DNA of 64,000 nt. It comes from Gemmatimonadota bacterium. Its GTDB lineage: Bacteria; Gemmatimonadota; Gemmatimonadetes; Palauibacterales; KS3-K002. Position 1 is the stretch's first letter, and each line of letters opens with the position of its first letter. The notes below the pieces were generated by a model. The model was not told the DNA's origin. It was given only the letters and a program-made list of their open reading frames with translations, and did not search any database. The translations under genes and the position numbers were made by a program. Where the stretch lies: contig CP070815.1 in NCBI GenBank assembly GCA_020344215.1, forward strand, positions 2,600,644 to 2,664,643, written 5' to 3'. Positions 43,962 to 44,677 of the stretch are shown here, one piece after another.

Positions 43962-44600
43962 ATGAACCCACCGAATCGAGAGGTCGATGCGAGGCTGCCA
44001 CTGGCACTGCTGCGCGCCATGCAGCGACAGGATACGCCGCCCGAGCTGATGCCCGACGAGCACCCGAGATCTTTCTTCCCCCACCGCCTGGGTCTCAGCG
44101 ACGTCGTCGCGGAGCAGATCCGCCGGTTCCGTCGCTCCGCGCGCCTGCGGCGCCGGGTCGGCGAGGCTCAGGTCGAGGCACTCCTCGAGTTGATCGCCCG
44201 CCGCTCCGACGCCGACGCCGTCTTCAGCGCCGCTGGTCGCGAGCTCGCCGGCCTCCACTTCTCCGGCCCCGCAGGGATCTTCCGGCGCCTGACCAAGCGA
44301 CTACCGCAGCCGCTTCGCCGGCGCGCGGCTCTCCGCACGTTGCGCACCGCTCACGGCGCCTACCTGATCGCCGCCGACAAGCACCTGGTCAAGACGGCAC
44401 CTCTGGAGATCCGCGCCACCGACCCCGTGACCGCCCGGATCGGCGAGTACGGTGCCGCCTGCAAGCTTTACGGCTCGCTCGCCGCCAGCCTGCTCGAGTT
44501 GAGCGGGCTCGGTCAGACGACGGTGTCTCATACCGAGTGTCAGCGACGCGGGGATGAGCGTTGCGTCTGGAGGGTGGAGGGGGATTCCGGTGGTCGGTAG
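43962..44600 (+). CDS. Hypothetical Arg-rich protein with C-terminal Cys pair
   Basis: ORF with typical codon bias; C-terminal ECQRRGDERCVW. Its last codons are formed by the left arm of the downstream repeat element. Confidence 0.5.
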   Translation: MNPPNREVDARLPLALLRAMQRQDTPPELMPDEHPRSFFPHRLGLSDVVAEQIRRFRRSARLRRRVGEAQVEALLELIARRSDADAVFSAAGRELAGLHFSGPAGIFRRLTKRLPQPLRRRAALRTLRTAHGAYLIAADKHLVKTAPLEIRATDPVTARIGEYGAACKLYGSLAASLLELSGLGQTTVSHTECQRRGDERCVWRVEGDSGGR

Positions 44601-44677
44601 TCGGTGGTCAGTGGTTGCGTTGCCCACCATTTACTCGTTCTCGAGTTCACTGACTACTGATCACCGATCGATCACTT
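44589..44677. repeat. Heptamer-array palindromic element (GGTGGTC-type), related in sequence to the element at 60977-61051. Lies between convergent genes.
   Basis: Left arm ggtggtc ggtagtc ggtggtc agtggtt. Right arm cactgac tactgat caccgat cgatcac. Confidence 0.7.

Follow-up and report, generated by a model that had tools for sequence, protein, structure and literature searches.

Inverted heptamer arrays at the stop codon of a V4R-like gene form a putative 3'-end hairpin in Gemmatimonadota

Results

Genes and Repeat Element at the Locus

The window, by which we mean the whole 64-kb stretch of DNA analysed here, carries an upstream gene (43962-44600, + strand) that was assigned from the ORF list, its homologues and a C-terminal alignment to a 212-aa V4R-like ('predicted hydrocarbon binding') protein. 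The same protein, identical in sequence, occurs in a Gemmatimonadota MAG, and the window was accordingly assigned to a MAG of this phylum. The protein has 68 homologues, some with PF02830, and every homologue with a named source belongs to Gemmatimonadota; judged by these relatives, the protein is Gemmatimonadota-specific. The convergent downstream gene (44736-45671, - strand) encodes a CDF cation-efflux transporter (PF01545 and PF16916); its 5' end was inferred from 311-aa orthologues, and its stop codon (44736-44738) lies 59 nt from a repeat element at 44589-44676, which begins within the end of the V4R-like gene.

The 5' arm of this element (44589-44616, + strand) consists of four tandem heptamers, GGTGGTC GGTAGTC GGTGGTC AGTGGTT, with the consensus RGTRRTC. 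It is followed by a 28-nt loop region (44617-44644) with small internal stems (e.g., ACTCGTTCTCGAGT at 44633-44646) and by a 3' arm (44645-44676), in which complementary heptamers stand in inverted order (GTTCACT GACTACT GATCACC GATC GATCACT; consensus GAYYACY). TRF called a period of 7 at 44588-44615 (4.0 copies, 85% matches), and an inverted-repeat finder reported arms of 19-20 nt with 80-84% complementarity. The + strand RNA is predicted to fold at -45.2 kcal/mol (shuffles -30.9 +/- 3.7; z -3.85, 0/200), the - strand RNA at -32.9 kcal/mol and the DNA at -20.9 (z -4.7), while single arms folded alone reached only -0.3, -1.8, -0.1 and -0.9 kcal/mol and were no better than shuffles. In these models, the element is shown to fold into a hairpin with a stem of about 20 bp or more.

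The hairpin has no T-run after either arm on either strand, and a consensus terminator/promoter scan of 36-56 kb returned 5 terminator-like sites vs. 8.7 expected, none of them at the element, so that a canonical intrinsic terminator was rejected; such terminators, with T-runs, are present elsewhere in related loci. Rfam gave no hits in the whole window at the gathering threshold, and only chance-level matches to miRNA precursors (E 0.22 and 2.7) within 44450-44800 at E<=10. A reading as an sRNA gene was rejected on the membership features tested, and an assembly artefact was dismissed because the same architecture occurs in independent assemblies.

The original prediction described a heptamer-array hairpin overlapping the last codons of a gene, which the repeat calls, the fold and the ORF all confirm. 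It also credited the left arm with the complete GGDSGGR ending and the stop. The ORF at 43962-44600 ends in ...E G D S G G R *, and heptamer units 1 and 2 (GGT GGT CGG TAG) account for the stop and the three codons before it but not for the whole of GGDSGGR; the TAG (44598-44600, + strand) lies within unit 2 (GGTAGTC). The stop of the V4R-like gene falls in the first or second unit at all 13 elements found in the window and 12 relatives. Since the C-terminal tail EG[DE][SG]G[RQ] is common to V4R-like homologues, the overlap of array and gene is old, and a recent insertion donating a new stop was rejected for the same reason.

Further real stops lie in the first array units of coxI and of an ABC_ATPase gene (locus L009). 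Each unit carries T-R-R triplets (TAG, TGA, TAA) with a period of 7, so that any entering frame would close within three units; an array may therefore abut a gene and supply its stop. ORFs running into metagenomic RGTRRTC arrays were not above chance (46% vs. 50% at random positions), and for this reason we claim no general stop-codon association beyond the homology-checked Gemmatimonadota genes. Two homologues (P0039 and P0056 in alignment A1) have a V4R-like ORF with a C-terminal extension ending in QCSSLGST. This extension appears to be an antisense reading of the end of the CDF gene, and therefore the spacer and the hairpin would be missing there.

Sister Element and Orthologous Spacers

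Dense RGTRRTC units occur at only two places in the window, the second being 60976-61056 (- strand), where AGTGATC GGTGATC GGTAGTC AGTGGTC GGTGATT is followed by a loop and complementary units (TRF period 7 at 60980-61055). This sister element occupies the spacer of coxI and coxIII, and its first unit contains the coxI stop TGA (61052-61054). The two elements had been placed in one repeat family from their units. Their local alignment score of 43 is far above that of 1000 dinucleotide shuffles (14.6 +/- 2.4; z 11.7, 0/1000), and the best of 1706 other window segments scored 26. The likeness is confined to the heptamer arms, as the loops do not align, and the family assignment stands at the level of the arms. 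GACCACT and GACTACC, which had been listed among the units of the V4R-like locus, belong to the sister element.

A one-genome-per-species scan gave 24 loci and contig look-ups added 3; 25 loci have the same gene order. At the convergent spacer between the V4R-like and CDF genes (hereafter the V4R spacer), a heptamer-armed hairpin is present in 12 of the 22 relatives in which the neighbouring gene is conserved (L003, L005, L006, L007, L008, L009, L010, L012, L022, L023, L027 and L028; L012 is on the same contig as L002, and L023 is from Ca. Kutchimonas denitrificans). It is absent, with a short or overlapping spacer, from L013, L014, L016-L021 and L029, and L015 has a direct 8-mer array only, (TGACCTAC)x5.5. 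The hairpin is kept in relatives down to ~60% protein identity. Its units read GGTGGCC/GGTAGCC in L006, L007 and L027, GGTGAGC/GGTAGGC in L008, L010 and L012, GGTGTGC/AGTATGC in L009 and TAGTGGG in L023; RGT is invariant at a fixed unit position and the remaining positions drift. Arrays at this spacer reach ~10 units in relatives, and versions with periods of 6 and 8 exist.

Among closer relatives the loop core GTCACTCGTTCTCAGTTAC is recognisable at the V4R spacer, which indicates vertical descent at the site. Between L006 and L007 the loops and 3' arms are almost the same, whereas the 5' arms are 2-3 units apart in length; this change of unit number between close relatives points to slippage. 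A Logan contig of 1119 nt (L001) with an identical V4R-like gene ends 22 nt past the stop, inside the array, and the heptamer repeat appears to break short-read assemblies.

Arm Pairing

Across the 13 elements, cognate arms have a mean duplex energy of -31.7 kcal/mol vs. -19.4 for non-cognate arms (permutation p<5e-5), and the cognate 3' arm ranks first in its row for 10 of them. An alignment of eight sequences has a consensus helix of 26 pairs, in which 91% of cells are paired vs. 84% in shuffled controls (0/500), and a covariation score of 0.361 vs. 0.231 (0/500), while slid controls reach at most 56% paired. Two alignment pairs occur as CG in three sequences, GC in three and UA in two, with none broken. 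These comparisons show that the predicted pairing of the arms is kept while the unit sequence drifts. Complementarity could also be maintained by template switching at the DNA level rather than by selection on RNA. The alignment contains 32 G-U vs. 11 A-C cells, favouring the + strand, and the + strand is the more stable one in 8/13 elements, with a mean difference of ~2.7 kcal/mol, which is inconsistent across relatives. Single or non-pairing arrays were found in L015, L033 and L030 (3163-3263). Given these, along with metagenomic arrays that have no partner, the array may be primary and the hairpin secondary.

Unit Similarity Within Genomes

The family relation proposed for the two window elements extends to other genomes, in which the V4R-spacer element and that of the spacer between coxI and coxIII share unit types; the comparison of the cox locus spans three genomes. 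GGTGGTC, GGTAGTC and GGTGATC are found at both spacers in the window genome. In the genome of L009, the cox-spacer element (L030, 2375-2473; GGTGTGC AGTATGC ... ACCGCAC) matches the units of the V4R spacer, and in the genome of L015 and L033 the unusual 8-mer (GTAGGTCA) occurs at both. In L022 and in L023, too, a second array resembles the V4R-spacer element of the same genome. When elements were scored by shared 8-mers, the V4R element of the same genome ranked 1 of 14 in 5/6 cases (chance ~1e-5), and similarity between sites within a genome was 0.18-0.37 vs. a median of 0.01 for orthologous sites across genomes. This pattern indicates that the units have been homogenised within each genome and differ between genomes, which could come from ectopic gene conversion, from copying or from a trans-acting factor that the sites share.

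The exception to the first rank is L009 8996-9112, where ~8 units of GGTGGCC/GGTAGCC run from the TAG stop of the ABC_ATPase (MRB1590-like) gene and are followed by AGTCGTC units and ACTGACC-type complements. Its 5' array far outnumbers its partner, and its unit type differs from that of the other two elements of that genome.

Other Hairpins and Metagenomic Arrays

In ~410 kb of Gemmatimonadota DNA, a spacer-folding scan, noisy because its GC3-based gene map is crude, picked up periodic low-GC hairpins, 13 of them in convergent spacers, 4 in co-directional ones and none in the 38 divergent spacers. None of these hairpins is followed by a U-tract. As 9 of the 13 convergent hits are orthologous to the V4R spacer, the independent count is ~7 convergent, 4 co-directional and 0 divergent.

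Several further hairpins were observed in the window and in related loci. A 148-nt hairpin at 12346-12493 (RNA -64.8 kcal/mol, z -6.0) is flanked by a 99-aa ORF and a convergent short-chain dehydrogenase gene; it is built of the hexamers TACTCG/CGAGTA, its arms reading TACTCG/GTAATC vs. GAGTAG/GAGTAC, and similar hexamer hairpins occur at L012 9897-10036 and L023 19455-19626. At 60195-60285, a hexamer-armed hairpin (CCTCGT/ACGAGG, ~-48 kcal/mol) between coxIII and a coxIV-like gene ends ~10 nt before the start of the latter; the hexamer arrays of its orthologue, L030 3163-3263, do not pair. The two window hairpins have CGTCATCCTC[A/G]TC in common, which suggests a putative second intragenomic family. 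A heptamer-armed hairpin of CGAATGT units with a GC-rich apical stem (30315-30425; -50.3 kcal/mol, z -6.0) lies between convergent hypE-like and hypF genes, and related hairpins of the GAACATC type are found at L029 12180-12345 and, with a less clean structure of GAACATC units, at 20908-21054 of the window. A 23-nt inverted repeat at 57165-57280 (91% complementary, 70 nt apart; G-rich GAGGGAGGGGGCGGGAGGACCAC and C-rich GTGGTTCTCTCGCCCCCTCCCTC) has no periodicity, lies in a divergent spacer and represents another kind of structure. In a convergent spacer, L022 6376-6534 is a 159-nt hairpin (-111 kcal/mol, 58% GC) whose arms have a weak period of 7.

The pattern (RGTRRTC)x3 followed by RGTRRT was found in at least 120 metagenome contigs. 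Among the matches listed, contig GC was 35-76%, arrays had 4-25 units, and an inverted partner lay within 160 nt in 30 of 92 evaluable arrays vs. 5 of 93 in the shuffled control; about two thirds of the arrays in these matches had no inverted partner. In metagenomic arrays AGTTATC, the in-register complement of TAACTGA, is mixed with AGTAATC and AGTGATC. Simple repeats of other periods adjoin RGTRRTC arrays in the same spacer (L039-L158), for instance where (AGTAGTC)n is followed by (AGAAGGC)n, as in L062, or by (GGAGTCA)n, as in L158, and in L066, L137 and L140 arrays stand directly upstream of a Shine-Dalgarno sequence and ATG.

Discussion

Hairpins of heptanucleotide STRR-like repeats are a known but poorly understood kind of element. 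To our knowledge, cyanobacterial STRR repeats have been without a known function for 35 years. Mazel in 1990 reportedly described the STRR units CCCCAGT, TTGGTCA and CAACAGT, one register of which reads RGT+N4. Hairpins of such 7-bp repeats stand between hupS and hupL, where a role in transcript stability or translational coupling has been put forward for them (PMC2670836). The literature searched gave no description of repeat hairpins in Gemmatimonadota. The arrays of both phyla are made of tandem 7-nt units in intergenic or intercistronic positions, inverted arrays are able to form long hairpins, and unit sequence varies between strains while structure is kept. They differ in their host, which here is a Gemmatimonadota genome at 66% GC with RGTRRTC units, not a heterocystous cyanobacterium with canonical STRR1-3. 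Moreover, unlike STRR arrays, the Gemmatimonadota array begins in the upstream gene's stop codon, and arm covariation and homogenisation of units within genomes have been demonstrated for it.

Another heptamer family, the TAACTGA repeats, is known from Beggiatoaceae, cyanobacteria and Bacteroidetes (MacGregor 2015, PMC4679880). Its stop codons limit coding overlap to about two units at most, and S1, Csp and CsrA have been proposed as candidate binders (PMC4679880). Both families are heptamer arrays with stop codons in all frames. In contrast to the inverted pairs of GC-richer units found at stop codons in Gemmatimonadota, TAACTGA arrays are direct repeats, mostly of 2-6 copies just upstream of start codons, with no predicted fold. 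The relation between the two holds at the level of the unit family (AGTNATC) only, in metagenomic arrays.

With moderate confidence, we interpret the element as two STRR-like heptamer arrays in inverted orientation, which evolve in place and act as a 3'-end RNA stem-loop; the RNA role of the 44589-44676 element is inferred from its position and pairing only. Upon transcription of the V4R-like gene (and of the convergent CDF gene), the arrays would fold into a long RNA stem-loop at the stop codon, which may stop 3'-to-5' exonucleases, act as a U-tract-less terminator or do both, on behalf of the two convergent genes. As the stop codon lies in unit 2, a ribosome that terminates there would need to open the lower stem. 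The sister elements in the cox operon may be intercistronic stabilisers. The puf operon hairpin of Rhodobacter and the REP in malE-malF are comparable stabilisers. Like 3' stabilisers and 'I-shaped' terminators of high-GC bacteria, the element has a long stable stem directly after the coding region and no U-tract, and its positions, between convergent genes and within one operon (cox), are those of 3' and intercistronic stabilisers. The stems of these known systems, however, are not made of short tandem units and do not evolve in concert between sites.

A somewhat unlikely alternative is that the hairpins are functionless by-products of slippage-prone heptamer microsatellites that are tolerated in gene-free spacers, with quasipalindrome template switching and ectopic gene conversion between arrays keeping the arms complementary and the units of a genome alike. 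According to Mrazek 2007, as cited in PMC4679880, heptamers are the most abundant long simple-sequence repeat in prokaryotes, and this abundance has been attributed to polymerase slippage. The differing unit numbers of close relatives, the single and non-pairing arrays at the same sites (L015, L033 and L030), the many partner-less arrays in metagenomes and the lack of the element in about half of the relatives' spacers all agree with this explanation. However, the V4R-spacer hairpin persists to ~60% protein identity with compensatory changes, hairpins were found at gene 3' ends only, with 0/38 divergent spacers occupied, and an inverted partner is, among the matches listed, six times commoner than in the shuffled control.

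The invariance of RGT in every unit, with drift at the other positions, could also mean that the array serves a multimeric RNA- or DNA-binding protein that reads one URR/RGT triplet per 7 nt; its binding to the 5' arm would compete with the hairpin and so control 3'-end formation. Periodic binding of this sort has models in HutP with its UAG-N4 repeats, TRAP and heptamer-binding cold-shock domains. The occurrence of the same unit family in contigs of very different GC is consistent with such a protein, genome-specific units at separate sites would fit co-evolution with a trans-acting factor, and the binders proposed for TAACTGA repeats (PMC4679880) offer a precedent. Nevertheless, we consider it improbable, since no candidate protein was identified, the L009 genome carries two different unit types, versions with periods of 6 and 8 exist, and the invariance of RGT could reflect the descent of units by duplication.

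The element had also been likened to REP/BIME-type repeats, and a mobile element of the REP/REPIN type, with inverted REP copies as its arms and a RAYT-type tyrosine transposase as the agent of its spread, would explain an extragenic, hairpin-forming sequence of ~90 nt downstream of genes, with genome-specific units common to several sites and with a presence that varies among genomes. REP/BIME elements likewise are extragenic, follow genes on the downstream side, in many cases between two convergent genes or inside an operon, have species-specific sequences and form RNA hairpins that stabilise the upstream mRNA. According to Liang, Rudd and Deutscher in 2015, REPs within ~15 nt of a stop are said to lower the translation of the upstream gene. 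The spacing of the arms is as in REP dimers, whose arms are 20-100 bp apart (PMC3733652), and GTAG, the tetranucleotide conserved at one end of the REP palindrome (PMC3733652), does occur inside some heptamer units (e.g., 44597-44600). It is never terminal, and many units have GTGG, GTGA, GTAA or GTAT in its place. Moreover, the arms are tandem heptamers, and an arm alone is not a palindrome; the two copies in the 64-kb window share their arm units (z about 12) and have unrelated loops, so that near-identical full-length copies are lacking in the window; the loop core conserved between species at the V4R spacer speaks for vertical descent at the site; and a Pfam scan of 15 window proteins brought up no transposase. 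Membership in REP/BIME was therefore rejected for want of a palindromic unit, a terminal GTAG tag and, between the two copies of the window, similarity over the full length; the earlier label is not sustained, and we give a mobile origin of this type a slim chance. A MITE was rejected as well, as the loops in the window are unrelated, the same site is occupied in 12 relatives, the loop core is conserved and a repeat finder saw no flanking direct repeat around the element.

The evidence thus presents a second, unrelated phylum with position-conserved hairpins from inverted heptamer arrays. It also includes formal evidence that pairing is kept while the units change, and evidence for concerted evolution of units across loci of one genome. 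Gene annotation is affected as well, for real genes owe their stop codon and final residues to the arrays. Finally, we may speculate, with considerable doubt, that RGT-N4 arrays (STRR, TAACTGA and RGTRRTC) are one cross-phylum system in which a trans-acting factor reads or writes the 7-nt register. If so, genome-specific units would reflect co-evolution with this factor, not chance gene conversion; the factor would be either an RNA-binding protein of ring shape or an activity that copies from a template; and the hairpin would be the state under regulation of a signal that marks 3' ends or translation stops in general.
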